Origin: Deltaproteobacteria bacterium
GTDB lineage: Bacteria; JACQOV01
DNA: 38,586 nt
NCBI GenBank assembly: GCA_016202395.1
Contig: JACQOV010000083.1
Location: forward strand, 1-38,586
Reading direction: 5' to 3'
Shown here: piece by piece, positions 1,331 through 16,411 of the stretch
Layout of the letters: every line of letters starts with the position of its first letter
How positions within the stretch are numbered: position 1 is the first letter of the stretch
Notes under the pieces: generated by a model
Seen by the model: only the letters and a program-made list of their open reading frames with translations
What the model was told of the DNA's origin: nothing
Database searches by the model: none
Translations under genes and position numbers: made by a program

Positions 1331-1364
1331 TCTTAGAATTCTTAGAATTTAGAATTCTTAGAAT
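1331..1364 (+). repeat. Short tandem repeat (TC)TTAGAAT x4
   Basis: tcttagaat tcttagaat ttagaat tcttagaat immediately before the sensor-kinase start. Confidence 0.8.
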
Positions 1365-3219
1365 GAGGATCATTGTGAGTCACTCGAACTCGGCTTGGCA
1401 ATATCTGGAGGAGCAAGATCGCCGCCGTCGTCGGCAAGAGCGATGGATTCTAGTTTTGGTTTTGTTGGTGTGGAGCGCGCTAACTTATACGGAGTTTTAT
1501 TACTTTGGACGAACGGCGACGGCTCCTCCCATCCCTAACGAACTTTTTATTTTTGGCCTTATTAATCTTAATATTCTTCTTCTCGTTTTCTTGCTCTTCT
1601 TGATTTTTCGGAACCTTGTAAAACTTCTTTTCGAGCCCAAGAGCTCTGTGCGTTGGGGAGGACTCAGTCGAAAGTTGGGGATCGCTTTTCTAAGTGTGAC
1701 GCTTCTTCCAACCCTCCTCCTCTTTGGGATTGCCTCCCGCTATGTCACGCAAAGTATCGATAGCTGGTTCAGTGAAAAGATCGAGACCTCGCAAGAAAAC
1801 GCTCTTCAAGTTGTTCGAAGTTATTATGCGGACCGCTCTCAAAGCGCGCTGCTCTTAATTCGGGAGGTTGGCAGGGAGATGGGGGAATCGCAAGCATCGG
1901 GTCCAATCCAAGATCTGCAGAATCGCTTTAATCTGGAAGGGCTTGCTGTGCTCAGCTCAGAAGGGAAGGTTCTTGAGAAAAAGGTTTTAGGAGACGCATG
2001 GATGAGAAATCCACCCGAAAAAGAATTCCTGAGCAGAGCTCGAGAGAATCGGGGAGAGGTTCGAGTGATTCGTTTCGGCGAGCAGGACGTGATAGAGGCC
2101 GTAGCCCCTGTTAAGATTTTGGAAGCGGAAACAGGGTGGGTGTGGAGCTGGTCCTTGATCCCCGCTTCACTTTCTAAGGAGATGGAACAGATCTCGACGG
2201 CCTTTGAGGACTACCAACGTCTGGAGATGCATAAAAATCCTATCAAGCAAGGCTATATTTTTACCCTTCTTTTAGTGACCTTGGCGGTTTTGTTTGCCTC
2301 TATCTGGTTTGGGATTTATGTGGCGCGTGGCATGACTCGACCGCTTCAGCAGCTTGCGGAAGGGACACGTAAAATCGCTGCGGGGGATTGGGATGTTTCC
2401 CTGGAAAGCGCTTCCAATGATGAGATGGGAACCTTGGTGAAGTCTTTCAATCGGATGGTCGGCGAGCTCAAAGAGAAACGAGATGAATTAATGCAGACTC
2501 AGAAAATTGCGGCTTGGCAGGAGGTCGCGCGGCATGTCGCTCATGAGATAAAAAATCCTCTAACCCCCATTCAACTTTCCGCCCAGCGTCTTCGACGTCG
2601 TTATCTTGGCCAGTTTCGGGAAGATGCTATTTTTGATAATTGCACGGAGACCATTATCCAACAAGTGGACGAGTTGAAGAGGCTTGTGGATCAATTTGCT
2701 CAGTTTGCTCGTCTCCCAAAACCGATCTTGATGGAGGCCGATCTCAACGAAATTATACGGGAGATTGTTCCGATCTACCAAGAGGGACACAAGGAGATCC
2801 AATTTGACTTGCAATTGAGCGCAGACCTCCCTCTTTTGCAACTCGATCGAGAACAGATCCATCGTGTTTTAATTAACCTCCTAGAGAATGCGGTGGCGGC
2901 CATGGAAGGAGCGGGGAAGATTGCTTTAGGAACCTCTTTTTCTTTAGATTCGGTCCGATTGGAGGTTCGGGATACCGGCGCTGGAATTGACCCTATCCAC
3001 CGAGATCGGATCTTTGAGCCCTATTTTTCCACGAAAGTCAGTGGCACGGGTCTGGGCTTGGCCATTGTTCATCGAATTGTTCAAGATCACAAAGCGAAGA
3101 TTCGTGTGGAGGCCAGTCTGCCTCAAGGAACCGTGTTTATTCTTGAATTTCCAAGGGTTATTTCTCAGTCCGAGGAAATGCAACCGAGAACTTTGTATAA
3201 GGTGGGGGGTCTGAGATAA
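1363..3219 (+). CDS. ntrY: NtrY-like membrane sensor histidine kinase (TM, HAMP, HisKA, HATPase); start may be GTG 1375
   Basis: N-terminal TM segments with NLNILLL and SIDSWF, a HAMP domain, H-box AWQEVARHVAHEIKNPLTPIQLSAQRL, and N/G1/F/G2 boxes. Confidence 0.85.
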   Translation: MRIIVSHSNSAWQYLEEQDRRRRRQERWILVLVLLVWSALTYTEFYYFGRTATAPPIPNELFIFGLINLNILLLVFLLFLIFRNLVKLLFEPKSSVRWGGLSRKLGIAFLSVTLLPTLLLFGIASRYVTQSIDSWFSEKIETSQENALQVVRSYYADRSQSALLLIREVGREMGESQASGPIQDLQNRFNLEGLAVLSSEGKVLEKKVLGDAWMRNPPEKEFLSRARENRGEVRVIRFGEQDVIEAVAPVKILEAETGWVWSWSLIPASLSKEMEQISTAFEDYQRLEMHKNPIKQGYIFTLLLVTLAVLFASIWFGIYVARGMTRPLQQLAEGTRKIAAGDWDVSLESASNDEMGTLVKSFNRMVGELKEKRDELMQTQKIAAWQEVARHVAHEIKNPLTPIQLSAQRLRRRYLGQFREDAIFDNCTETIIQQVDELKRLVDQFAQFARLPKPILMEADLNEIIREIVPIYQEGHKEIQFDLQLSADLPLLQLDREQIHRVLINLLENAVAAMEGAGKIALGTSFSLDSVRLEVRDTGAGIDPIHRDRIFEPYFSTKVSGTGLGLAIVHRIVQDHKAKIRVEASLPQGTVFILEFPRVISQSEEMQPRTLYKVGGLR

Positions 3220-3220
3220 G

Positions 3221-4609
3221 GTGGAAACTGTTGCGAGAAAAGTGCTCGTTGTGGATGACGAAGGGAGCATCCTTCAGTCCCTCAAAGGGGTTCTAGAAGA
3301 CGAGGGATACGAGGTTCAGGTGTGTCAAAGCGGTGGAGGCGCTCTTCATGTCATCCAAGAATCGGCCTTTGATCTGGTAATGCTCGATATTCGGATGCCA
3401 GGCATGGATGGGATTACAACGCTACAGAAGATGCGAGAAATGAACCCGGAGATTCCCGTGGTGATGATGTCAGGACATGGAACCATTGAGACTGCTGTTA
3501 AAACGACGAAACTTGGCGCTTACGACTATGTCGAAAAGCCGCTCTCGGTGGATAAAGTTCTTCTAACGGTGCGTCATGCCTTGGATGAGTTAGCGCTTAA
3601 ACGAGAGAACCGAGGACTTCAGGAGAATTTCAAAAATCGTTACCAAATGATTGGGGAGAGTCCCCCCATGGAAGAGCTCAAGAGACAGATTGGGCAAGTG
3701 GCTCCCACCGATAGTTCCGTTTTGATTACTGGAGAAAATGGAACGGGGAAAGAGCTGGTTGCGCGAAACATTCACCATTTTAGTTCTCGCGCGAATCACC
3801 CCTTTGTGGAGGTGAACTGCGCGGCGATTCCTGAAGAGCTAATTGAAAGCGAGCTCTTTGGACATGAGAAAGGGGCTTTTACCGGCGCCGTTGCCCGACG
3901 ACGAGGAAAATTCGATCTCGCTGATAAAGGCACAATCTTTTTAGACGAGATTGGAGATATGAGTTTAAAGACTCAGGCCAAAATTTTACGGATCCTTCAA
4001 GAGAAACGATTTGAAAGAGTGGGCGGAAAAGAATCGATCCAAGTCGATGTTCGTGTTATTGCGGCAACTAATAAAAAGCTAGAACAAGAGATGGCTCATG
4101 GAAAATTCCGAGAGGATCTTTATTATCGACTCAATGTGATCCCTTTTCATATTCCTCCTCTGCGTGAGAGGAAAGAGGACATCCCTGTCTTTATCGATTA
4201 TTTTTTGAAAGAAAATGGGTCTCTCAACCTTCCAGTGAAAATCAGCCCGGAAGGAATAAAAGCTTTGATGGATTATCATTGGCCGGGCAATGTGCGAGAG
4301 CTCAAAAACCTAATGGAAAGGATTACGATTCTTTCTCCTTCGGAAACGATTCAACGGAAGGATCTTCTCCCGTGGCTCCGTAAGGAAAGTCCTGGGGGGA
4401 ACCCTCGCGCGAGCCGATCTCTTGAAGAGGCCCGGCGGCTGTTCGAAAAAGAGTTCATCGAGAATAAGTTGATTGAGAATCGATACAATATCTCTCGCAC
4501 CGCGGAGGTCATTCAGATCTCGCGAGAAAACCTTTCTCGAAAGATGAAGGCGCTCGGAATCCGTGTGGAGCGAATACAGGCGATGAGCCAGAAATTCCAA
4601 GAAATCTGA
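3221..4609 (+). CDS. ntrX: NtrX-like sigma54-dependent response regulator (REC, AAA+, HTH)
   Basis: Receiver VVDDE...LDIRMPG, Walker [38 protein letters not shown], Fis-type HTH. Confidence 0.88.
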
Positions 4610-5523
4610 TGATTGAAATATTACTCGACAATTTAAAGCGGTATTTCTATTTTGTTCATTTCGCGTTGGTCACCCTTTGCGCCTTCTTTGCTTCTCAGAT
4701 TGTTGCGGACTTTATCGCTCATCGCATCGGCGTCCCTTCCATCGCCGAGGTGGGAGCTCCCTCTGGGGAGATTTCGGAGCCCTCTTCTCGATCCGCCGCT
4801 CGAGCGGTTAGTAAGACTGCGTATAACTCCATTATCGATAGAAATATTTTTAACTCCCAAGCGACAGGATTAGAAGGAATCCCGGGTGAGATCTCCGAAA
4901 ATCTTCCTCCAACTCCTCTGCAGGCCCAACTTCTGGGGACCATTGTGGGGCCTGCGGATTATCCGGAGTATTCTTTTGCTGTGATTGAGGATAAGGTGGC
5001 GAAAGAGACCTCCGTCTATCATGTGAACGACCTTGTTCAAAATCAAGCGAGGATTATTCAAATTGAAAGAAACCGCGTCGTGATTTATCGCGATGGGAGA
5101 CAAGAGTCCCTTCTTTTATTTGAGCAAGAAACTCCCACACTCACCCCTTCGACCTCCACCAGTTCTAAGGAATCTGGAAGTGTGCAAGTTCGAGAGGTGG
5201 GAGAAGGAACTTACGAGGTTTCGCGCCAAGAATTCGAATCTGCGACAAACAACATGGGAACTTTGTTGACTCAAGCGCGAATTGTGCCGAATCTTTCTGA
5301 AGGTCAAGTTGATGGGTATAAGGTTTTTGCGATCAAAAAGGGGTCTCTTTACGAAAAGATTGGGCTTCAGAATGGGGATGTGATAAAAAACATTAATGGC
5401 ATTAATATCTCGAGCCCTGAAAAAGCTCTCCAGTTGTTCCAAGATTTAAGGAACGAGAGCGCATTTGCCGTAGAATTAACACGAAATGGACAACCCATGA
5501 CCCTTAACTATTCGATTCGATAA
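4609..5523 (+). CDS. gspC: Type II secretion protein C (TM, HR domain, PDZ)
   Basis: N-terminal TM, RNIFNS, LLGTI HR domain, C-terminal PDZ (KIGLQNGDVIKNING); precedes the secretin. Confidence 0.9.
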   Translation: MIEILLDNLKRYFYFVHFALVTLCAFFASQIVADFIAHRIGVPSIAEVGAPSGEISEPSSRSAARAVSKTAYNSIIDRNIFNSQATGLEGIPGEISENLPPTPLQAQLLGTIVGPADYPEYSFAVIEDKVAKETSVYHVNDLVQNQARIIQIERNRVVIYRDGRQESLLLFEQETPTLTPSTSTSSKESGSVQVREVGEGTYEVSRQEFESATNNMGTLLTQARIVPNLSEGQVDGYKVFAIKKGSLYEKIGLQNGDVIKNINGINISSPEKALQLFQDLRNESAFAVELTRNGQPMTLNYSIR

Positions 5524-5536
5524 AAAGGAGCTTTTG

Positions 5537-8008
5537 ATGAGAAAATTGTTAGGGTACGGTATCCTGACCCTCGTTTTGATGAGTTTCTCGGAGGGGTTTT
5601 CAGCGGAGGGGCCTGATCAATCGCTAGAGCCACCCTCGCCAGGCCCGTCCATTGCGATTCCAGAAACGACAGTGGCCACCCCTCCGGTGGAGCCCCTCAA
5701 AGAGCCTGAACCTGTTCCAGTTCCTCAGCCCTCCAATGAACAAAAGCCGGTGGAACCTCCCAAAGGGGGTCCTGCGACAAAGGCCCCGCTCCCGAAAGAC
5801 GCCAAGATCAGCATCGACTTTAAGGATATTGAGATTCGGGATCTCGTCCGAACCATCAGCGAGCTCACCGGCCAAAATTTTTTGGTGGATGACAAGGTTC
5901 GTGGGAAGATTACGATTATTTCCCCGACCCCCGTGACGCCAGAAGAGGCCTATGAGGTTTTCTTGTCGGTGCTGGCGGTCAATGACCTCACCGTTGTCAA
6001 AGTGGGGAAAATCAATAAGATTATTCCCGCCCGCGAAGCCAAAGAGACCCCCATCGAGACGATTGTAAACGCTAAGACGAGTATTAAACCTCAGGACAAG
6101 TACGTGACCCGCCTGATTCCTCTGTATTACATTGATGCGGGAACCATTGTGGATGCCTTAAAGGGGCTTATCTCAAAGTATGGGAATTTACAGGCCTATG
6201 AACCCACCAATACCTTGATTCTCACTGACACGGCCTCCAATATCGATCGGCTTCTCCGAATTATCTCCCGCCTGGATACCGATGTCTACAGCGAACGGAT
6301 TGAGGTCATCACTCTCAAGTACGCCTCCGCAAAAACGATATCGAGCTTGATCAGCAGTCTCTATACTGCAAAAACAGGGAGGGGAAAACCCAAAGAGGGA
6401 AGTCCCACCGTTGAGAAGATCTTATCGGATGATCGAACCAACTCCGTTATCATCGTTGCCAATCAACCTGATCTCGAAGCGATCAAGGAACTCATTGCCA
6501 AGTTGGATATTGAAGTTCCCGCCGGGACGGGACAGATTCATGTTCATTACCTCCAAAACGCCGATGCCGATGGGGTGGCCTCCACCCTTTCCAATCTCAC
6601 TCAAGGGGCAGGGCAGCCTCGGCAACCGGGTCAGACTGCGGCCGTGGCCGAGTTTGTAGGAGGCATCAAGATCACAGCGGATAAATCGACCAACTCTCTT
6701 GTAATTGTTGCGGACCCTCAAGATTATGAAACCCTCAAAGCGGTGATTGACAAACTCGATATCCGCAGACGCCAAGTTTTTGTGGAGGCTGCCGTCGTTG
6801 AAATCTCAGTCGACAAATTGAGAGACATCGGACTCTCCTTCCATGGAGGAAATGCGGCGAGTGACGGTGGAATTATCACGGGGGGATCGAATCTGGGGCC
6901 TGTCAGCACTTTAGGGCTCGATCCCACCTCTCTGGCGGGTCTTTCCGGCCTTGTCCTCACCGGCTTCGGCGATAACATTACCGTCACCGATTCGAGCGGA
7001 AATGAGGTTCAAGTTCCCGCCTTTGGAGCCCTTTTGCGCCTCATCCAAACCGACAGGGATGTTAATTTGCTCTCGACTCCTCATCTGTTAACGACGGACA
7101 ATGAGGAAGCGGAGATTGTGGTCGGTTCCAACGTTCCGTTCCAAACGGGAACGAGTCAATCCCCCACCAGCACGGTAGTGACCATTCAACGACAGGATGT
7201 CGGTTTAACCTTAAGGCTCAAACCCCAAATCAATGAGGGGGATTTTGTGAAGCTCAACATCTTTCAGGAGGTGACCTCTGTCATTGAAAGTCCTCCAGGG
7301 GTGGATGCGGCCACCGTCGGGGTCACCACCTCAAAACGCTCTGCCAAAACCGTGGTGGTGGTCAAAGACCGTCAAACGGTGGTGATTGGCGGACTGATTA
7401 CGGACAATCTCCGAAACGCTGAAAGTAAGATCCCAATCTTGGGGGATATCCCGATCTTGGGGTGGCTCTTCCGTTCCAGAAGTCACCGCGTTGAGAAGAC
7501 CAATCTGCTGATTTTTCTCACTCCTTACGTTGTCAAAGGGCCTGAGGACATGGATGACATTAAGAGGGTGAAAGAATCCGAGAAGAAACTCTTCATGGAG
7601 CATGTCGGAGCAAGAAAGCCAAACCGGTCGTATATCGAGAATAGAGAGGAGTTTACACCTCCCAAGGAAGCAACCCCCTCCAGTTACACCATCACTCCTT
7701 CAAAATCGACTTCCGAGGAGAAGAGAGAAAAGAGGCCCTCTTCGAAATACGAGATCGAATGGAGTGAAGAGGAGATGAAGGAGAAACAAACTCCAACGGA
7801 ACCTCTAATGGAACCCCCAACGGAATCCAAAGAAGAGCCCGTTGTTCCTAAAGAAACATCCTCTCCATCTCAAGAGATACCGGCTCAAGAGATGCCGGAG
7901 ATTCAAAAGCCTGTGGAGATTCCTCCGACCCCTTCTACCGAAGAGTCAACCCCTTTTGTAGCTCCTGAGGGGGAGGTGCAACCGTCCGCGATAGAGGAGG
8001 GGAGGTAA
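5537..8008 (+). CDS. gspD: Type II secretion secretin
   Basis: Signal peptide, N0 domain (IDFKDIEI...VRGKITII), N domains, secretin motifs LSTPHLLTTDNEEAEIVVG and KIPILGDIPILGWLFR; AAAGGAG RBS before ATG 5537. Confidence 0.95.
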   Translation: MRKLLGYGILTLVLMSFSEGFSAEGPDQSLEPPSPGPSIAIPETTVATPPVEPLKEPEPVPVPQPSNEQKPVEPPKGGPATKAPLPKDAKISIDFKDIEIRDLVRTISELTGQNFLVDDKVRGKITIISPTPVTPEEAYEVFLSVLAVNDLTVVKVGKINKIIPAREAKETPIETIVNAKTSIKPQDKYVTRLIPLYYIDAGTIVDALKGLISKYGNLQAYEPTNTLILTDTASNIDRLLRIISRLDTDVYSERIEVITLKYASAKTISSLISSLYTAKTGRGKPKEGSPTVEKILSDDRTNSVIIVANQPDLEAIKELIAKLDIEVPAGTGQIHVHYLQNADADGVASTLSNLTQGAGQPRQPGQTAAVAEFVGGIKITADKSTNSLVIVADPQDYETLKAVIDKLDIRRRQVFVEAAVVEISVDKLRDIGLSFHGGNAASDGGIITGGSNLGPVSTLGLDPTSLAGLSGLVLTGFGDNITVTDSSGNEVQVPAFGALLRLIQTDRDVNLLSTPHLLTTDNEEAEIVVGSNVPFQTGTSQSPTSTVVTIQRQDVGLTLRLKPQINEGDFVKLNIFQEVTSVIESPPGVDAATVGVTTSKRSAKTVVVVKDRQTVVIGGLITDNLRNAESKIPILGDIPILGWLFRSRSHRVEKTNLLIFLTPYVVKGPEDMDDIKRVKESEKKLFMEHVGARKPNRSYIENREEFTPPKEATPSSYTITPSKSTSEEKREKRPSSKYEIEWSEEEMKEKQTPTEPLMEPPTESKEEPVVPKETSSPSQEIPAQEMPEIQKPVEIPPTPSTEESTPFVAPEGEVQPSAIEEGR

Positions 8009-8010
8009 CG

Positions 8011-9729
8011 ATGGCGGGAGAGCGCCGATTGGGAGAAATTTTGGTGGAGATGGGAGCGATTCAACCGGATCGGTTGGAAGAGGCGCTTCAAGTTCAACGT
8101 GAAAAAGGAGGGAAGCTTGGAGAGATTTTACTGAAATTAAAGGCTATCGAAGAGGCCGATCTTTATCGCGCTCTGGGCATCGCTTTTGGGATGCGATATC
8201 TGCCTAAGTTAGAGCTCGCCGCGATTGATTCGACATTGGTCAGTCAAATTCCCATCAATTTTGCTAAAAAAAATCTCCTCGTTCCTTTAAAGAGGAGCGC
8301 CTCCGTGATAGAGGTTGCCATTGCCGATCCCCACAACTTGTACCCTGTGGATGATGTTGCCTTAATCTTTGGAAGTCGAGTGGAGCCGATTCTTGCCAGT
8401 CCAAGCTCGATTGTGGAGGTCATCAACGCGCTTTACGAGCGATCTTCCGACACCGCGGAAAGCATGATGGGAGATTTGGAGGAGCAGATTGATCTGGATT
8501 CCGTGGCCACCGGCTTGGACGAACCGATCGATCTGCTCGAGGCCGAGGACGAGGCGCCGATCATTCGTTTAGTGAACTCCCTCCTGTATCAAGCCGTTAA
8601 AGAACGGGCGAGCGATATCCACATCGAGCCGGCGGAGCGAGAGCTTGTGGTTCGGTTCCGAGTGGATGGAGTTCTCTACGATATTATTCGTCCCCCTAAA
8701 AGGATTCAGTCGAGCGTGGCCTCCCGCATCAAGATTATGGGGGGGCTCAACATCGCTGAGAAACGACTCCCTCAAGACGGCGGTTTTCGAATTAAGATTG
8801 CGGGGAAAGACATCGACATTCGTCTCTCAGCGATCCCGACTTTTTTTGGGGAACGAATCGTCATGCGTCTGCTCGATCGATCGAGTGTGTTAATTGGTTT
8901 GGAGCAACTCGGTTTCTCCAAAGATTACCTCGAAGTCATGCATCGGTTAATTGGCTTGAGCCATGGAATACTTCTGGTGACTGGGCCAACAGGAAGTGGG
9001 AAAACCACAACGCTCTACGCCGCTTTAAGCCGGATCAACAAGCCTGGAATCAACATTATCACGGTAGAGGATCCGGTAGAATATCAGTTAAAAGGGATCG
9101 GTCAGGTTCAGGTGAATTCCAAGATCGAGCTGACCTTCGCAACCGCTCTTCGTTCCATCTTGCGTCAGGATCCTGATGTGATCATGATCGGAGAGATTCG
9201 AGATCTGGAGACGGCCGAGATTGCCATTCAAGCCTCCCTCACAGGGCATCTCGTTCTTAGCACCCTTCATACGAATGATGCCGCGGGAGCGATCACCCGT
9301 CTTGTCGATATGGGGGTGGAACCTTTTTTGGTCTCCTCATCTGTCGTTGCGATTTTAGCCCAACGTCTTGTTCGCCTTGTTTGCAAGGAATGCGGGGAAC
9401 GGTATGAGCCTACCGATGCGGAACTTCAGGAGATTGGGTTGGAGCGAAATCAGCTCTCCGAAGGGAAGCTCTATCGAGCCCAAGGATGTCAAAAATGTTT
9501 GAAAACGGGTTACATGGGGCGAAGCGGAATTTACGAGCTCCTGCTTGTGGATGATGCGATTCGCGGGATGGTCACCGGAAATGTGGACTCGATGTCGATC
9601 CGGAAAGAGGCAATCAAAAAAGGGATGAGAACACTTCGAGAGGATGGCGCTTTAAAAGTGGCGCAAGGAGAGACAACCACGGAGGAGGTTTTAAGGGTGA
9701 CTCAGGAAGACATGATCGAGATACGATAA
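8011..9729 (+). CDS. gspE: Type II secretion ATPase
   Basis: MshEN-like RLGEIL N-terminus, ASDIHIEP, GPTGSGKTT, LRQDPDVIMIGEIRD, tetracysteine motif. Confidence 0.95.
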   Translation: MAGERRLGEILVEMGAIQPDRLEEALQVQREKGGKLGEILLKLKAIEEADLYRALGIAFGMRYLPKLELAAIDSTLVSQIPINFAKKNLLVPLKRSASVIEVAIADPHNLYPVDDVALIFGSRVEPILASPSSIVEVINALYERSSDTAESMMGDLEEQIDLDSVATGLDEPIDLLEAEDEAPIIRLVNSLLYQAVKERASDIHIEPAERELVVRFRVDGVLYDIIRPPKRIQSSVASRIKIMGGLNIAEKRLPQDGGFRIKIAGKDIDIRLSAIPTFFGERIVMRLLDRSSVLIGLEQLGFSKDYLEVMHRLIGLSHGILLVTGPTGSGKTTTLYAALSRINKPGINIITVEDPVEYQLKGIGQVQVNSKIELTFATALRSILRQDPDVIMIGEIRDLETAEIAIQASLTGHLVLSTLHTNDAAGAITRLVDMGVEPFLVSSSVVAILAQRLVRLVCKECGERYEPTDAELQEIGLERNQLSEGKLYRAQGCQKCLKTGYMGRSGIYELLLVDDAIRGMVTGNVDSMSIRKEAIKKGMRTLREDGALKVAQGETTTEEVLRVTQEDMIEIR

Positions 9730-10961
9730 TGGCTATTTATGAATATCAGGGCATGGGTGCTAATGGAAGAGTTGTAAAAGGGATTGTGGACGCGGAATCC
9801 CCTAAAGCGGCGCGCGCCAAACTCCGCAAGCAAGACCTTTTCATCACCCAGTTAGTTGAAGAGAAGGAAGTTGCCGAAAAAGGGTTGTCCCTTCGCCGAG
9901 AGGTGGATTTTCGTCAGATCTTTGGAAGGATTCGATCTCAAGAGATCTCCGTTTTTACTCGTCAGCTTGCAACCTTGCTCAACGCGGGACTTCCTTTGGT
10001 GGAGGCTTTGAACGCCATCATCGATCAACTCGAGAATGTAAAGCTCAAGAAGATTGTGACCCAGGTTCGAGAAAAGGTAAACGAAGGGAGTTCTCTTGCC
10101 GAAGGTCTTAAAGGCGCCTCGAATATTTTTTCCGATCTCTACGTCAACATGGTTCGGGCTGGGGAATCGAGTGGAGCTTTAGATATCGTTTTGGTCCGTC
10201 TTGCGGACTTTTTGGAAGACCAGGTTAAACTCCGGCAGAAAGTGACGGCCACATTGGTCTATCCTATCTTTATGGTCCTCTTTATGGGGGTGATTGTCTT
10301 TTTCTTGATGACCTTTGTTCTTCCAAAGGTCACCGAGGTTTTTGCCAATATTGGACAGGCGGTCCCGATCTACACTCGAATCATGATCGGCCTAAGCCAT
10401 TTCTTTCAGAGATTTTGGATCCCTCTAATTATTCTCATGATTGGCCTCTATTTCGGTTTTAGAAGAGCCCTCCATGTTCCAAAATTCCGACGGCGGTGGG
10501 ACGCCTTTCGGATCCGAGCCCCTATTTTTGGAAAGATCTCCCGAAAAATCGCCATCTCTCGTTTCACTCGGACCTTAAGCACGCTCCTCAGCAGTGGAAT
10601 CCCAGTTTTGATATCAATGGATATTGTGAAGAACGTGGTGGAGAATATGGTTTTATCTGAAGCGATTGATGCCGCAAAAAACAGCATTTCAGAAGGGTCG
10701 AGTATCGCGGAGCCTCTGCGTCGAAGCGGCCTTTTTCCACCCATCGTTACTCACATGATCACTGTGGGGGAGAAAAGTGGAGAGTTGGAATCGATGCTGG
10801 TCAAGGTTTCCGAGGCCTACGACAATGAGGTGGAGGCGACGGTGTCGGGGCTCACGGCGTTACTAGAACCGATCTTGATCTTAATGATGGGAGGGATCGT
10901 TTTCTTTATCATGATCTCGGTCTTGCTCCCAATTTTGCAGATGAATCAAGTACTAAAATAA
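9729..10961 (+). CDS. gspF: Type II secretion inner-membrane platform protein
   Basis: FTRQLATLLNAGLPL, AGESSGALD, GEKSGELE, LLEP; three TM segments. Confidence 0.95.
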   Translation: MAIYEYQGMGANGRVVKGIVDAESPKAARAKLRKQDLFITQLVEEKEVAEKGLSLRREVDFRQIFGRIRSQEISVFTRQLATLLNAGLPLVEALNAIIDQLENVKLKKIVTQVREKVNEGSSLAEGLKGASNIFSDLYVNMVRAGESSGALDIVLVRLADFLEDQVKLRQKVTATLVYPIFMVLFMGVIVFFLMTFVLPKVTEVFANIGQAVPIYTRIMIGLSHFFQRFWIPLIILMIGLYFGFRRALHVPKFRRRWDAFRIRAPIFGKISRKIAISRFTRTLSTLLSSGIPVLISMDIVKNVVENMVLSEAIDAAKNSISEGSSIAEPLRRSGLFPPIVTHMITVGEKSGELESMLVKVSEAYDNEVEATVSGLTALLEPILILMMGGIVFFIMISVLLPILQMNQVLK

Positions 10962-10971
10962 GGAGAAAAAC

Positions 10972-11433
10972 ATGAAAAGAGTTAACATTCGAAATAAAGA
11001 GAAAGGTTTCACGCTCATCGAGATCATGGTGGTGGTGATCATTATTGGATTGCTTGTCAGCATTGTTGGGGTGAACGTGATCTCGCGTGTGGACACCGCC
11101 AAGAGGGTTGCCGCCAAAAATCAGATGAAGAGCCTGGAGTCCGCTTTGTCCCTTTACCGGCTGGATACCGGAACTTATCCCAAGACAGAACAGGGCATGA
11201 AGGCCTTGCTCGAAAAGCCTGCGACAGGGGATGTCTCGAGTGCTTACCGAGAAGGGGGCTATCTGGACGCCAATGCTATTCCTAAAGATCCATGGGGGCA
11301 TGAGTACGTTTATCTTAGCCCAGGAAGTGAAGGGAGAGAGTATGAGGTTATTTCCTATGGAGCGGATGGAGAGCCGGGGGGGGAGGGGAAGGATGCGGAT
11401 ATACAAAGCTGGACGATGGAGGTTGAAGAATAG
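10972..11433 (+). CDS. gspG: Major pseudopilin
   Basis: Prepilin site G/FTLIE, LYRLDTGTYP..QG, PKDPWG, SYGADG. Confidence 0.96.
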   Translation: MKRVNIRNKEKGFTLIEIMVVVIIIGLLVSIVGVNVISRVDTAKRVAAKNQMKSLESALSLYRLDTGTYPKTEQGMKALLEKPATGDVSSAYREGGYLDANAIPKDPWGHEYVYLSPGSEGREYEVISYGADGEPGGEGKDADIQSWTMEVEE

Positions 11434-11434
11434 A

Positions 11435-11559
11435 GGGATGTCGATAAAGGCCCATCTGCTTCGTTGCCTTCCCTCGGCACTTGCTCGACGTACGCCACAG
11501 AGTACGTCTCGCTCGGCCTCGGTCAGGCGCCTCGCATCTGGGACCTTTCTCAACATCCC
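11435..11559. repeat. 125-bp rod-like palindromic element between gspG and gspH
   Basis: Terminal inverted repeats GGGATGTCGATAAAGG / CCTTTCTCAACATCCC (14/16 match) and a central hairpin GACGTAC-N8-GTACGTC. Confidence 0.75.
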
Positions 11560-11571
11560 ATTAATACTCTG

Positions 11572-12105
11572 ATGAAAAATCAGGAAAATGGATTCACGCT
11601 TATTGAGCTTTCGATTGTGCTTCTAGTCATTGGGTTGGTGTTGGGGATTGTGGTTCCTCGCTTTCAGAATTTTCTCGAGGTGGATCTGAAGTCGGCCTCG
11701 CGTCGATTGGCCGGCGCCATTAAATACACCTACGATCGGGCCATCTTCACTCGCAACACCCTGCGCCTTTTCATGGACTTGAAAGAGAACACCTATTGGA
11801 CCGAGGTGTGTGCTAGTGTGACCACAGAGGCCTGTGAGTGGGTCGCAGATTCATCGGTTCTGGGGAGAAAAACCAAACTGCCGCACGGGATTTCTTTTAG
11901 AGATATTTTTATCAATGGAGAAGAGGTGGATGCCACAGCGGTCGGGCTTCATTTTTACCCCTCTGGTTTTGTGATTCCATCGACGATTCACTTGTGGGAT
12001 GGAAAGGAAGACCACACATTGAGTCTCATTATCAATTCTGTTACGGGGAAGGCGGATATTTATAAGGGTTATAAAGTGGAGGTCAAACAATTTGAATTCG
12101 AGTAA
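11572..12105 (+). CDS. gspH: Minor pseudopilin GspH-like (start ATG 11572)
   Basis: MKNQENG/FTLIE prepilin motif; C-terminal FYPSG. Confidence 0.8.
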   Translation: MKNQENGFTLIELSIVLLVIGLVLGIVVPRFQNFLEVDLKSASRRLAGAIKYTYDRAIFTRNTLRLFMDLKENTYWTEVCASVTTEACEWVADSSVLGRKTKLPHGISFRDIFINGEEVDATAVGLHFYPSGFVIPSTIHLWDGKEDHTLSLIINSVTGKADIYKGYKVEVKQFEFE

Positions 12106-12541
12106 ACCACTTCGCAGCTTCAACGATCTTGGATTTACGTTATTAGAGGTGGTGGTGGCGGTGGCCATTTTAGCGACGGCGTTTTTTTCTCTCTTAGTTT
12201 TACATAATCAAACAGTAAATATGAGCTATCGCGTCCAGTGGATCAATGAGGCCACGTTTATCCTTCGGGAGAAGATGACGGAGGTGATTTTACAAAGGAG
12301 CGACTCTCAGGGGATTATTGCGGATCGGGAACCCCCTTTTGAGGAGCGCTTTCCGAATTTTGAGGTCTCTGTTCAAGAGATTCCTTTAAGCACTTTGAGT
12401 GTTATTCCTGTAGAACTGAAAATTCCTCTCGTTTATTATCAGATTACCACCACCGCTTTAAACTCTTCCTCAGAAGAGATATCGGAAGAGAAAAAGGGGG
12501 AGAGTATGGTCATCGGTTTTATTATCGCCGACACGGAGTAA
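12092..12541 (+). CDS. gspI: Minor pseudopilin GspI-like
   Basis: G/FTLLEVVVAVAILA prepilin motif; position in the cluster. Confidence 0.78.
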   Translation: MNSSKPLRSFNDLGFTLLEVVVAVAILATAFFSLLVLHNQTVNMSYRVQWINEATFILREKMTEVILQRSDSQGIIADREPPFEERFPNFEVSVQEIPLSTLSVIPVELKIPLVYYQITTTALNSSSEEISEEKKGESMVIGFIIADTE

Positions 12542-12543
12542 CA

Positions 12544-13251
12544 ATGTTTAAGTCTAAAAAGGGATTTACATTGCTGGAGATCATGGTCGCCTTGACCATC
12601 CTCTCGATCATTTTAATGTTCGTCTACGACACCTTTTTTGCCACACTTCGTGCCCGAGATATCGTGGAGGGGAAGAATGAATCGGTTCAAGGCGCCCGAA
12701 TTATTTTGCAGCGTCTCACCCGCGATTTGAGCGCTGCGGTTCTTGTGAATTATGGGGAGAAACAGGGGTCGGATGAACCGATCAAAACCTTATTTCAAGG
12801 GATTCGGGATGAGGAAGACGGATATGAAATGGATAAACTCCATTTCACAACCCTGTCCCACGTCCCTATTCCCATCGATTCGGAGGATAATAATCAATCC
12901 GCTTTGGCTGAGGTAAGCTACGTTTGGGAACGAGATTCTGAGGAGGAGAGCATCTATCTTTTCCGTCGAGAGGATTTCGCCGTGGACACCGAGCTCACCG
13001 AAGGAGGGAGTTACGCCATGCTTGGCAAGGGGCTCCAAGAGTTTCGCTTGAAATACTACACTGCATCGAGTTCCGGTCAAAGCTATCAGTGGGTGGATGA
13101 ATGGGATTCTACGGAAGACAATACTCTTCCGATGGCGGTAGAGGTTCGTTTGGTTTTTAAAGAACAGAATAACGAAGAAGAGGGTGAAACGGAATCGAGC
13201 GAAAAAGTTTACACGGCTTTAATCCCACTCTATCTTGCTCAAAGGAAATAA
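12544..13251 (+). CDS. gspJ: Minor pseudopilin GspJ-like
   Basis: KKG/FTLLE prepilin motif; C-terminal WVDEWDS...LPMAVEV. Confidence 0.85.
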   Translation: MFKSKKGFTLLEIMVALTILSIILMFVYDTFFATLRARDIVEGKNESVQGARIILQRLTRDLSAAVLVNYGEKQGSDEPIKTLFQGIRDEEDGYEMDKLHFTTLSHVPIPIDSEDNNQSALAEVSYVWERDSEEESIYLFRREDFAVDTELTEGGSYAMLGKGLQEFRLKYYTASSSGQSYQWVDEWDSTEDNTLPMAVEVRLVFKEQNNEEEGETESSEKVYTALIPLYLAQRK

Positions 13252-13257
13252 GATTTT

Positions 13258-14331
13258 GTGAAAAAAGATCCAAAGGGGTTCGCACTCATTATTGTATTAA
13301 CCCTAGTAACCATTTTAGCTGCGGTGGTTGTGGAGTTTGCTTACACAACGCGCGTTGAAGTAGAACTCACTAGCGCCACACGAGACGATCTGCAAGCCTA
13401 TGCTCTTGCTTACTCCGGGATCGAGATTGCAAAGTCTTTACTGCTATCGGATCTTCAAGAAGACCAAGAGCAAGGGGCTAAGATCGACTTCATTCCTTCG
13501 GAGCTTGATCCCACCGAAGAGCTTTGGGCGCAAACTCAGATGGGAGGTTTTGAAAGCTTCCCAATCACAACGGATGAAGCGGGAGAGATCGGTGTGGTCA
13601 GCATCAAGATTACAGATGAGAGCTCTAAATTCTACTTGAATGGCTTGGTAAAAACCAATGGGGTGGATGTCGATACGGAGGCCGCAGAGATGGCCTCTCG
13701 ATTGTTGGAGGCTTTAGAGCTTCCTCCGGAGATTGTGGATGATGTCATTGATTGGATTGACACCGATGACACCCCTTATGGATTAGATAGTGTGGAGTCC
13801 CCTTTTTATGCCTCTCTCGATAAACCTTATGAGTCGAGGGATAGCTTCATGCTCTCCATCTCAGAGCTTCAGATGATCCATGGGGTGGACGATGCCACAG
13901 CACGGAAATTGCAAGGACAAGAGGATGAAAACTACCGTAAAGATGCGCTCGGCTCGGTTTATCTCTCAGCCTATCCCCGTGTGGACAGTTGGGCTATCAA
14001 CGTCAATACTGCCTCTGCCATGGTGTTGCAATCGATCTCTGCGGAAATGTCCTCTTCCGTTGCAGAATCGCTGATAGAGCGCCGGGAAGAAGAGCCTTTT
14101 AAAAGTGTGAGTGATTTTACACAGGAATTAGCCAACTCTGGGATCCAACTCAGCGGCGCTCTAACGAGCCGTCTTGCTGTCAGGAGCGATGTTTTCTCGG
14201 TTCGAGCCGAAGGGGTGGTTCATGGTGTAAGCAGTGTAATGGAGGCTGTTTTGAAAAGAGGGACGACCTCTTCAGGAGGGGCCACCTCCTCCAGCAATCC
14301 CATCGAAATCCTTTTCCTCCGAGTTTTGTAA
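13258..14331 (+). CDS. gspK: Minor pseudopilin GspK
   Basis: G/FALIIVL (no Glu5), DESSKFYLN, DWIDTD, SELQMIHGV, INVNTAS. Confidence 0.9.
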   Translation: MKKDPKGFALIIVLTLVTILAAVVVEFAYTTRVEVELTSATRDDLQAYALAYSGIEIAKSLLLSDLQEDQEQGAKIDFIPSELDPTEELWAQTQMGGFESFPITTDEAGEIGVVSIKITDESSKFYLNGLVKTNGVDVDTEAAEMASRLLEALELPPEIVDDVIDWIDTDDTPYGLDSVESPFYASLDKPYESRDSFMLSISELQMIHGVDDATARKLQGQEDENYRKDALGSVYLSAYPRVDSWAINVNTASAMVLQSISAEMSSSVAESLIERREEEPFKSVSDFTQELANSGIQLSGALTSRLAVRSDVFSVRAEGVVHGVSSVMEAVLKRGTTSSGGATSSSNPIEILFLRVL

Positions 14332-14358: not shown

Positions 14359-15369
14359 ATGAGCCCAAAGAGCTACAAAAAGGGGTGGTTTTGGCCGGTA
14401 GCGGTGGGTGGGATCCTCGTGGTCACCGTGGTCCTCCTACTCATTTGGAGATGGATAAAGCCACCGGTTCCTCCGCAGCCGCCGGCCCCTGATTCTTCAA
14501 CGGTCTCCCACTTTACTATTTATCACGGTGACCATTTAGGATCTGTCGCTTTAGTCACCAACGAATTCGGCTTTGTCACCCAAGCTGAGAGTTACTTCCC
14601 CTATGGCGAAATTGTCTCTGAGAGTAAGGTCAATGAAAACGAGGTCACTCGTTACCTTTACACCCACCAAGAACGGGACGATTCCGAATTCTATTATTAC
14701 GGCGCAAGATACTACGATCCAACCTCAGCTCGCTTCATGAGTGTTGACCCCATAGACCAATATCCGATAAACTCGTATAATTACGTGAAGAATAGTCCCA
14801 TTTCATTTGTTGATCCGAAGGGTCTATTTCTTGAGAGAACCACACCCTATACTGAACCTATTTTTCAGATGATTTTCGGCCGTCCTAGGGATAGCCATGT
14901 GGGTGAAGCTATTACTTCAAGAAAATTTATAAAATGGGTCGAAGGTAAAAGTTTAGCGATGTTACAACATGAGGCGGATTATAGAGGGCCAGCGAGTAGT
15001 AGTGATGCGGGGGGACCTGAACGGAAGCATCGATATGTGATAGATCCTGGAAATCCAGGTGCCATTATCGATATGAGGCACTTTTTAGTGGTTGGGGAAC
15101 GGGGAGAATTGTTTGGCCTGGGAGTTGAGCTACGTCAATTGAGCGACTCTATAATAACAGAGGATGCAGAATTAGAAAGAACAGTAATGGATCCGGAAGA
15201 TTTTTATTCCAACGCATTAGGAGTCGAATTCTTCACCAATTTTTATGATTTTAACGGAGAACCCTTTTGGGAACAGTTGCAAGATTATTTTGACTATCGT
15301 CGAGCTCAATACGAACAGTACTTAGCTCAATTCTGGAAAGATTCTAAAACCATTCCTGAAGAAAACTAA
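14359..15369 (+). CDS. Short RHS repeat-associated-core protein with N-terminal TM anchor and a variable, toxin-like C-terminal domain
   Basis: Hydrophobic segment at about aa 10-32, Pro-rich linker, then YHGDHLGS...YFPYG...YYYGARYYDP...RFMSVDP...YNYVKNSPISFVDPKG; no YD-repeat shell. Confidence 0.85.
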   Translation: MSPKSYKKGWFWPVAVGGILVVTVVLLLIWRWIKPPVPPQPPAPDSSTVSHFTIYHGDHLGSVALVTNEFGFVTQAESYFPYGEIVSESKVNENEVTRYLYTHQERDDSEFYYYGARYYDPTSARFMSVDPIDQYPINSYNYVKNSPISFVDPKGLFLERTTPYTEPIFQMIFGRPRDSHVGEAITSRKFIKWVEGKSLAMLQHEADYRGPASSSDAGGPERKHRYVIDPGNPGAIIDMRHFLVVGERGELFGLGVELRQLSDSIITEDAELERTVMDPEDFYSNALGVEFFTNFYDFNGEPFWEQLQDYFDYRRAQYEQYLAQFWKDSKTIPEEN

Positions 15370-15388
15370 GTTCACCGGAAATAAAAAA

Positions 15389-16411
15389 TTATCGGGGATC
15401 TTCTGTAACATCCAGCGGCACTTCTTTAAGGTATATCCTTTGATACTCCTGGTTAAGCTTGAGGTGATGTTCAGTACAACTGATTTCCACTACACATCCT
15501 ATCTCCTCATCGAAAACTACTCGAGGAGGTGCAGAAGCTGCAGACATTGAAGGATATAGGTGCTCTCGTCTTCTCTCTTGTCCCAGTACAATAGGGTACA
15601 CTCCATGATTGTACGTTATAAATCCTTCTAAATGACTTTTCTGAGGTGGGCCCATGATTTTTTCTACTTCCTCTCTTGTCATTCCTAAGCACAGATCATA
15701 GCATGCCGATAGTACCTTTCGAGCTTTGATTTCTTCTTCGTAATTCACTCCGAGAATACGCATGACAAGTCTGTCAAATAAACTAACAAGAGGGCGTTCG
15801 TCTAATGGTTCCAGGCGTTGTTGTCCAAGAGGTCCATCCGTTGTTTGAGGAGACTCATCTGGAGAATCCACATGCCCTGAATCGATCGTACTACTTACAA
15901 TGTTTAGAGTCAGATACTGCTCACCCAAATTGAGAGATGGGAAAAGTGGGTCATTCGATGTTAGACTTTTAGATGAGGTTGAATTTTCTTTCTCTTCTTT
16001 TCCGGAGGGGTCTGTAATTCTTAAAGGATTATTCCAGGCGTAGGCATAGAGATTGAGATCTTGAGGATTCGACTCATCTCGGATCGGATCGATACTCAAA
16101 AACCGGGATAACACCGGATCGTAACAGCGGGCTCCGTAATGGAAGAGCTCGGTAGAAGCATCGAATTCCTGTCCTGTATAAAAAGGGAAAGAAGATTCCC
16201 CCTCCGACGAAGACAGATCTGAAAGGATCTCTCCATCGGGGGAGTAGAGGAGGGCTTGAGTCACGTGTCCGTCTTCGTTGGTAACAATGGTAGAAGAGCC
16301 CACGTGATCCCCATGAGAGTATCGAACCCCCTCTGCCTGAACGGGGAACAGAGGCAAGATCCCCATCAGGGGGAAAAGATACCACCCTCGATGCCAATGG
16401 ACCTTTTTCAT
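15389..16411 (-). CDS. Short RHS repeat-associated-core protein with a predicted Sec signal peptide and a BamE/SmpA-like C-terminal motif
   Basis: MKK...PVQA/EG signal, then YSHGDHVGS...FYTGQEFD...HYGARCYDP...RFLSIDP...YAYAWNNPLRITDPSG; C-terminal LGMTREEVEKIMGPP. Confidence 0.82.
   Translation of the reverse strand: MKKVHWHRGWYLFPLMGILPLFPVQAEGVRYSHGDHVGSSTIVTNEDGHVTQALLYSPDGEILSDLSSSEGESSFPFYTGQEFDASTELFHYGARCYDPVLSRFLSIDPIRDESNPQDLNLYAYAWNNPLRITDPSGKEEKENSTSSKSLTSNDPLFPSLNLGEQYLTLNIVSSTIDSGHVDSPDESPQTTDGPLGQQRLEPLDERPLVSLFDRLVMRILGVNYEEEIKARKVLSACYDLCLGMTREEVEKIMGPPQKSHLEGFITYNHGVYPIVLGQERRREHLYPSMSAASAPPRVVFDEEIGCVVEISCTEHHLKLNQEYQRIYLKEVPLDVTEDPR

Follow-up and report, generated by a model that had tools for sequence, protein, structure and literature searches.

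On the current view, an RHS or Tc-toxin cocoon closes around its cargo while a single chain folds, or while TcB and TcC are folding jointly in the cytoplasm, and the RHS-associated core is what we take to be the plug and aspartyl autoprotease of these cocoons, two Asp residues presumably being catalytic. Two short genes that carry this core were found in a stretch of 38,586 nucleotides from a Deltaproteobacteria bacterium (contig JACQOV010000083.1 of assembly GCA_016202395.1; the whole stretch is called the window). We put at roughly 50% the probability that these genes, termed mini-RHS genes or minis, belong to a split, Sec-exported cocoon of RHS/Tc type with interchangeable core-cargo modules. 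Among described systems, the TcB-TcC cocoon of Tc toxins comes nearest. In the passages of Song et al. 2021 (PMC7861908) seen here, 97.2% of 2,528 TcC proteins measured 851 to 1,050 aa, orphan TcCs had to be of that size, and the hypervariable region was 201 to 400 aa long in 97.9%; going by those passages, proteins like the minis would therefore not have been counted there, and surveys requiring proteins of TcC size would overlook mini-RHS genes. The part of PMC11067744 consulted describes several alternative TcC cargo genes, at separate loci, for one shell. The listings and abstracts returned by full-text literature searching described neither core-only RHS proteins that carry a signal nor a split between shell and core.

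The pair in the window consists of an open reading frame (ORF) at positions 14359 to 15369 (forward strand, 336 aa; gene 1, family member C62_14332) and one at 15389 to 16411 (reverse strand, 340 aa; gene 2), which are convergent, lie 19 bp apart, and are flanked by gspK and pheA. Both have an ATG start and a predicted export signal, and their C-terminal regions are unrelated, falling into separate blastp clusters. The core family TIGR03696 (Rhs_assc_core), which has a curated cut-off of 32.5 bits, matched gene 1 at 72.4 bits (residues 79 to 156) and gene 2 at 72.2 bits (residues 57 to 137), and no YD-repeat or RHS-repeat family scored above threshold in either gene in Pfam and NCBIfam scans. 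The motifs RF.S.DP and P....DP.G are readable in both translations. An earlier note made from the letters alone (the sequence-only reading) had described two convergent genes of about 340 aa, each built of export signal, core with both Asp motifs, and unrelated C-terminus, with gene 1 starting 27 bp after gspK on the same strand; all of this was borne out.

In gene 1, the putative signal anchor of the uncleaved type (residues 1 to 34, positions 14359 to 14460) consists of a basic n-region followed by a hydrophobic helix of 21 residues, behind which no AxA-type site is seen (KD10 = 3.58, uncharged run of 22). A Pro-rich linker (residues 35 to 52, positions 14461 to 14514) leads into the core (residues 53 to 158, positions 14515 to 14832), which runs from the Y-H-G-D-H-L-G-S strand to DPKG-L and scored 142.5 bits with a core hidden Markov model (HMM) of our own, built from the window genes. 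The C-terminal cargo domain (178 aa, positions 14833 to 15366) has no Cys and no Pfam family; a near-length homologue search with it recovered only itself, and a weak structure lead in the Atlas pointed to uncharacterised YkzU-type clusters (score 0.92, TM 0.61). Gene 2 opens with a predicted cleavable Sec signal peptide with n-, h-, and c-regions, which ends in V-Q-A by the -3/-1 rule (residues 1 to 26, positions 16334 to 16411), and the first aromatic residue of the core stands 4 residues further on. Its core (residues 29 to 139, positions 15995 to 16327) scored 131.7 bits with our HMM. The C-terminal cargo domain of 201 aa (positions 15392 to 15994) has 4 Cys, and its last 100 residues or so are weakly BamE/DUF3192-like (Pfam BamE, E = 0.075; Atlas structure rows with TM of 0.54 to 0.63 by target). 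The layout of gene 2 was also seen in three metagenomic homologues (P0002 to P0004), one of which is 39% identical over 86% of the length, C-terminus included; the C-termini of all three are homologous to that of gene 2.

The window belongs to the genome of a groundwater bacterium (1.897 Mb in 108 contigs, 89% complete), in which 61 matches to TIGR03696 were found, 58 in frames of 246 to 456 aa and three in frames of 2485, 3061, and 3192 aa; our HMM confirmed all 61. The five sequencing runs traced are metagenomic DNA of groundwater from two studies, and four of them yielded only short, identical contigs of low depth. The window genes are thus ordinary members of a 58-copy family of Sec-exported modules of core plus cargo. 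Its members, mostly grouped in arrays of consecutive genes, are spread over 24 contigs, with 16 on contig C28 and 5 each on C30 and C104, and 14 contigs bear just one mini and no visible shell. Of the assembly, 3.5% is occupied by minis, and together with six large RHS genes they account for 5.7% of the 1.9-Mb genome, whereas the core matches number 7 or fewer in each of 40 other genomes, which are kin to this one at the domain level only; this unusual scale marks the family as central to the lifestyle of the organism. The median distance between adjacent members of the family is 48 bp, and 24 of 33 gaps are under 150 bp, leaving no room there for an immunity gene. Of the 58 minis, only the two in the window lie beside genes of a type II secretion system (T2SS), so the family as a whole is not characterised by adjacency to gspK. 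The idea of a pair-specific system attached to the T2SS, put forward in the sequence-only reading, is therefore not supported, the largest arrays adjoining genes for TcB-like RHS shells instead.

By our own hydropathy (threshold 1.6) and -3/-1 heuristics, a start codon and a hydrophobic N-terminal signal were found in 57 of the 58 minis, the sole miss being truncated by a contig start; 55 of 58 also pass a hydropathy threshold of 2.0. A typical N-terminus consists of Met, a few basic residues, 12 to 20 hydrophobic residues, and an AxA-type site, with Y.H.DHLGS a few residues on, and in 33 of the 54 scorable minis the last -3/-1 site precedes the D of DHLGS by exactly 7 residues. Exceptions are gene 1 and C58_25117, which have a long helix plus linker of the signal-anchor type. 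Among 60 aligned family members, D108 and D134, the two Asp of the motifs, are invariant in all 60, as are P58, G60, R95, Y122, Y124, P129, and G137. The ratio of nonsynonymous to synonymous divergence (dN/dS) of the core was 0.16 to 0.52 in 8 of 12 paralogue pairs with unsaturated dS, and the core is evidently under purifying selection, judged from these sequence comparisons. The genes are accordingly not the decayed orphans that the sequence-only reading had already argued against, given their starts and signals, the fixed register of the -3/-1 site, the invariant Asp residues, and the dN/dS values. In a tree of the core, the 16 minis of C28 formed one clade, the tree being poorly resolved and the minis of this genome not monophyletic against outgroups. 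One pair of paralogues appears mosaic (C30_7442 versus C5_1262), with a dS of 0.05 in the 5' and signal region and 1.5 in the core.

Sequence similarity between members ends directly after DPxG, and blastp sorts the C-termini of the 61 proteins into 52 clusters. These C-termini are 120 to 292 aa long, with 56 of 61 counted within 201 to 400 aa (178 aa in gene 1 and 201 aa in gene 2), mostly acidic (median isoelectric point [pI] of 5.1, below 6 in 47 of 61), and poor in Cys, which is absent from 41 of 61 and makes up 0.26% of residues versus 1.06% in other frames. The module, as read from the sequences, is thus composed of a putative signal peptide (in gene 1 a signal anchor), a core of about 110 residues, and a hypervariable, mostly acidic, Cys-poor cargo of about 240 aa. 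No Pfam toxin family was matched at E ≤ 0.01 in the C-termini when all 58 minis were scanned. Three mini C-termini on contigs C2 and C43 (L022:4600-6829 and L021:2519-3724) gave weak repeated helix-turn-helix matches (HTH_1, HTH_23, and HTH_Tnp_ISL3; best E = 8e-7), which is unusual for secreted cargo. A transmembrane (TM)-like segment is present in 19 of 61 C-termini, often right behind DPxG and including all three fused proteins described below, which hints at membrane-inserting cargo in this subset. In the youngest pair (C43_1206 and C43_2519), dN/dS was about 1.3 in the cargo and 0.33 in the core.

The six largest ORFs of the genome all encode RHS proteins, of which three are fused to a core (2485 aa on C28, 3192 aa on C95, and 3061 aa on C29) and three are core-less, one lying directly after each fused gene. 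The core-less proteins measure 1678 aa on C28 (SpvB, 89.7 bits; TcdB_toxin_midN; RHS_repeat, 82 bits), 1836 aa on C95 (RHS_repeat), and 1792 aa on C29 (RHS_repeat). TIGR03696 of NCBIfam is present in the three fused proteins and absent from the core-less shells of C28 and C95, the two that were scanned, and with our HMM all three were negative for a core. The gene order on C28 and C95 is fused RHS gene, core-less shell gene, and mini array, each directly following the other. The 1678-aa shell aligns to the fused 2485-aa protein from the SpvB region up to residues 1626 and 2071, respectively, and the fused core begins at residue 2100. Residues 1242 to 1390 of this shell correspond to residues 271 to 424 of YenC2, so that by extrapolation of length the shell ends near YenC2 575 to 580; residues 28 to 137 of gene 2 correspond to YenC2 582 to 689, the mini thereby beginning where the shell ends. 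The identity of the core to TccC3, YenC2, and RHS2 is 34 to 38%. The term shell-less, used of the pair in the sequence-only reading, therefore holds for the polypeptides, which have no YD or RHS repeat, and probably fails for the system, given that three core-less shells stop at the point where a mini starts and that shell and core are fused in three further proteins.

Signal-like N-termini are present on all the large RHS proteins. At their C-terminal ends, two of the core-less shells have a hydrophobic helix followed by RRRRR, and the third has a two-helix hairpin and a tail of about 50 residues. In all three fused proteins, about 100 residues between shell and core comprise a TM-like helix, a basic loop, a second helix, and an AxA-type site, an insert that by its sequence is a predicted C-terminal anchor and signal peptide kept back to back. 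No TM-like insert between shell and core was seen in 112 foreign core-bearing RHS proteins found with the shell or in 42 long or mid-size ones found with the core profile. P0006 (1648 aa), an orthologue 55% identical to the hairpin-ending shell, is likewise core-less and has the same ending, which indicates that the core-less hairpin shell is conserved and no fresh pseudogene. A MYXO-CTERM-like sorting tag was considered for the tail of G-C-S, TM helix, and RRRRR and was rejected, as no NCBIfam model matched and the tail occurs in only 2 proteins of the genome.

Structure predictions were made with AlphaFold2. For gene 2, the local confidence (pLDDT) was 81 to 92 over most of residues 31 to 140, with a whole-model pTM of 0.32. 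Using Foldseek, this core matched the plugs of TcdB2-TccC3, YenC2, RhsA, and teneurin (E from 1.7e-5 to 1e-2 over about 110 columns at 25 to 38% identity), with a high root mean square deviation of 7 to 8 Å. As modelled, the core appears to have the plug fold of the solved RHS, TcC, and teneurin cocoons, and the PDB entry titles of the matched structures name Asp cleavage mutants. A stretch of a fused protein covering shell, hairpin, and core gave a pTM of 0.69, in which the shell strands and the core were confident (pLDDT up to 92) and the hairpin was low. This model superposes as a unit on whole TcC chains (5kis_B, TM 0.72 over 814 columns; 6l7i_G, TM 0.68; 4igl_D, TM 0.59).

Taken together, these findings suggest that the minis are probably the detached C-terminal piece of a TcB/TcC-type cocoon encoded in two parts, and that they probably load separately encoded core-less shells rather than work without a shell. 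The fusions of shell and core provide a Rosetta-stone argument for this partnership. The steps envisaged are that shell and mini would cross the membrane separately via Sec, the basic tails after the helices fitting the positive-inside rule, and that the shell would be held at the membrane by its C-terminal anchor. The mature mini, starting exactly at the first strand of the core, would then complete the spiral and plug the shell in the periplasm; the cargo would be enclosed and subsequently severed after DPxG by the two Asp residues, and the many paralogues would provide interchangeable cargo. The size of the cargo, its depletion in Cys, and the lack of immunity genes fit an enclosed cargo kept unfolded. 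In its full form, which we propose tentatively and hold to be a little short of an even chance, the RHS core is a portable docking-and-self-cleaving adaptor, and any one of some 58 modules of signal, core, and cargo, each exported on its own, would complete, load, and seal a membrane-tethered, core-less TcB/TcC-like shell in the periplasm, amounting to a Sec-dependent, trans-assembled form of encapsulation that draws on a large library of cargo, involves neither a type VI secretion system (T6SS) nor TcA, and also occurs, reduced, in DPANN-type archaea. If true, this would alter the current view of cocoons, in that an RHS core would be able to work in trans and the loading of a cocoon could follow passage across the membrane.

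Compared with the BC sub-complex of Tc toxins, the split cocoon proposed here shares SpvB, TcdB_toxin_midN, and RHS repeats in its large proteins, the sequence identity of the core, and the fit of the fused stretch to TcC chains. It also shares a cocoon of two polypeptides, several cargo genes per shell, cargo of 201 to 400 aa in most family members (gene 1, at 178 aa, lies below this range), and no immunity genes. It differs in that the split falls at the boundary of shell and core, whereas in Tc it falls mid-shell, and in that the minis measure 330 to 430 aa, against the 851 to 1,050 aa given for most TcCs in the consulted passages of PMC7861908. Sec signals on both halves, C-terminal membrane anchors on the shells, the lack of a TcA-size ORF, 58 cargo genes, and acidic cargo set it apart as well. 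Unlike TcC subunit genes, the pair in the window is not beside tcB or tcA, although other members of the family adjoin TcB-like shells. The classical rhs loci of Enterobacteria and bee-gut bacteria likewise have arrays of core plus variable C-terminus downstream of a full-length gene, with the boundary at DPxG; the orphans there are 5'-truncated, signal-less, and each followed by an immunity gene, whereas the minis have their own start and signal and leave no room for one. WapA-type toxins similarly carry an N-terminal Sec signal, and both these and Rhs effectors of the T6SS have the same core and the same two Asp residues, but their whole YD shell is in one chain. Rhs effectors further need PAAR or VgrG and a T6SS, and here no TssC/VipB was found in the 89%-complete genome, in a search for which the E. 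coli control was positive and which did not cover PAAR and VgrG.

The occurrence of the architecture elsewhere was examined with a profile of signal plus core, which, searched against 1.84 billion representatives, matched 427,695 proteins at E ≤ 0.001. Among the best 150 of these matches, 37 were proteins of this genome, 41 were foreign, short, and with a clear signal just before the core (31 to 74% identical to ones here), 43 were foreign and short with no signal by our heuristic, 20 were foreign and long, and 9 were foreign and intermediate. The 58 copies in this genome and at least 41 foreign cluster representatives show that the architecture has homologues, as the sequence-only reading needed, and a build recurring this often is not due to chance. 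In 37 of the 41 foreign signal-bearing minis the C-terminus was at least 100 aa long, and for these the median length was 228 aa, the median pI 5.3, and the Cys fraction 0.49%. A sample of named genomes yielded 113 core-bearing frames, comprising 10 short signal-bearing ones (2 doubtful by eye), 63 long, 35 short without signal, and 5 cut, and a metagenome sample yielded 61, comprising no short signal-bearing ones, 43 long, 9 short without signal, and 9 cut.

In two unrelated genomes, too, a signal-bearing mini adjoins a core-less RHS shell. In an archaeal metagenome-assembled genome (L066), a signal-bearing 2118-aa protein with RHS_repeat at 111 bits has YD repeats to its very end and no core, and the gene after it codes for a signal, the last shell strand, a core, and a C-terminal domain. 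A mini of Sulfidibacter corallicola (L110), likewise signal-bearing, lies next to a core-less 2322-aa protein that matches SpvB, FG-GAP, and RHS_repeat. Of five foreign genomes with such minis, four (G041, G043, G044, and G045) had all their core matches in short frames (7 of 7, 6 of 6, 4 of 4, and 1 of 1; 275 to 581 aa, one frame sitting at a contig start), and the minis there thus cannot be a reserve of cassettes for some full-length gene with a core. Very small archaeal genomes are among those in which the architecture recurs. A giant protein of an Aenigmatarchaeota genome (L111) was tried as a further shell example and rejected, since its only match was Laminin_G_3 and no RHS family was found. 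Proteins of 3,300 to 5,300 aa were noted in the representative library and in Sulfidibacter (G042), including P0126, P0128 to P0130, P0133, P0138, P0151, P0222, and others, and several of the giant library representatives carry two or three RHS cores per chain.

A number of observations weigh against a split cocoon. The 58 minis face only 3 core-less shells, the solitary minis lie on contigs where no shell is in view, and the core-less shells fall 200 to 370 aa short of the usual combined size of a canonical TcB and the TcC shell portion. No TcA-size ORF is present in the assembly, and the other large ORFs are not TcA-like; the search with PF18276 (TcA_TcB_BD) also gave no match, but its control was equally silent. 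Canonical TcA translocation prefers basic cargo, and the cargo here is mostly acidic. That the cargo is a toxin is an assumption, since the 58 C-termini yielded no match to toxin families in Pfam, and the cargo of gene 2, with its 4 Cys and BamE-like tail, is more suggestive of a folded domain in the periplasm than of a toxin that is translocated. The signals were called by heuristics and not by SignalP, and the hydropathy threshold on its own is poorly specific, being passed by 268 of 765 unrelated frames as well. In other genomes, no confirmed RHS shell was found within four loci with signal-bearing minis (L106, L057, L071, and L112), and no YD repeats were found in G043 at E ≤ 0.001.

The most serious rival, which we nevertheless consider unlikely, is an autonomous design in which the mini is exported by Sec, its core folds alone and cuts itself after DPxG, and the cargo is released to the periplasm or passes through the T2SS to the medium, the core-less shells being a separate matter. 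The imbalance between minis and shells, the solitary minis, and the foreign loci without a confirmed shell all speak for it, as do the high pLDDT of the isolated core, the operon-like position of gene 1 (27 bp past the gspK ORF, with an AAAGGA resembling a ribosome-binding site 9 nt 5' of its ATG), and the fact that Sec and the T2SS form the sole export route in view, given no T6SS sheath and no TcA-size ORF. To our knowledge, no RHS core has been described that folds or cleaves when not inside a shell, and the listings and abstracts found in literature searches show none. In addition, the model of the isolated core superposes poorly on the solved plugs and its pTM is low, T2SS neighbours are confined to 2 of 58 minis, and a physical partnership is favoured by the three natural fusions and by how exactly the end of the shell and the start of the mini complement each other. 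The family itself offers a simple and direct test, namely, whether an RHS core folds and cleaves without a shell.

It is rather improbable that the C-termini are variable periplasmic or surface proteins, such as binding, adhesion, or envelope factors, with the core serving only as a maturation or attachment device. The lack of Pfam toxin matches and of immunity genes, the BamE/DUF3192-like C-terminus of gene 2 with its 4 Cys, the weak helix-turn-helix matches, and the TM-like segments after DPxG would suit such proteins. Hypervariability that sets in exactly at DPxG and cargo of TcC-like size are, however, hallmarks of polymorphic toxins, and depletion in Cys suits proteins kept unfolded. Tc toxin cargo likewise is not known to come with immunity genes.

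Least probable of all, and held at long odds, is that the minis are classical orphan cassettes, silent or rarely expressed reservoirs of C-termini that recombine via the core into the three fused RHS genes as in enterobacterial rhs loci, for although full-length RHS genes precede the arrays of C28 and C95, core DNA is conserved in some pairs, mosaics occur, and the C28 minis group together in the weakly resolved tree, nearly all minis have their own start and a signal at a fixed distance (signal-less short frames being the type seen elsewhere in 35 of 113 and 9 of 61), no immunity genes stand between members, the core is under purifying selection, the fused cores are the most divergent and hence poor recombination partners (53 to 106 bits versus 95 to 147 for minis), and the 18 core matches of the four foreign genomes are all short with no full-length acceptor found.

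The T2SS operon (gspC-D-E-F-G, pseudopilin genes, gspJ, and gspK; positions 4609 to 14331, forward strand) lies directly upstream of gene 1 and is given here as context rather than as part of the system. Its last gene, at positions 13258 to 14331, was identified as gspK by NF037980 (197.8 bits), PF21687, and PF03934. Three secretins were found in the genome. A T2SS exit is plausible for the split cocoon, as both of its halves would be periplasmic and no T6SS or TcA was found, although linkage lends this route no support. No match to GspL (PF05134) or GspM (PF04612) was found in the whole 89%-complete genome, controls being positive, and gene 1, with its single N-terminal membrane helix, occupies the slot where gspL and gspM follow gspK in canonical operons. 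A scan for promoters and terminators around the pair did not exceed shuffled sequences (6 versus 3.9 ± 1.8 and 4 versus 3.0 ± 1.6). Directly 5' of gspC and on the same strand, genes for an NtrY-like histidine kinase and a sigma-54-dependent response regulator (window positions 1363 to 4609) were identified, and these may regulate the T2SS operon, gene 1 included.

Further neighbours of the minis were noted outside the window. Just 5' of the solitary mini on C22 lies a gene for an M36 fungalysin-type metallopeptidase (273.8 bits; C22:626-4132), and just 5' of a Planctomycetota mini array lies one for a giant protein that matches "myxosortase-dependent M36" models internally (residues 525 to 661; L106:1-5550); an M36-type protein may thus be a recurring neighbour of minis. 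Four ORFs with no Pfam match lie in or beside the arrays, at C28:27143-29587 (reverse strand, 815 aa), C28:15036-16817 (forward, 594 aa), C29:16225-18429 (forward, 735 aa), and C95:21531-22325 (forward, 265 aa), and are candidates for accessory factors or immunity proteins.

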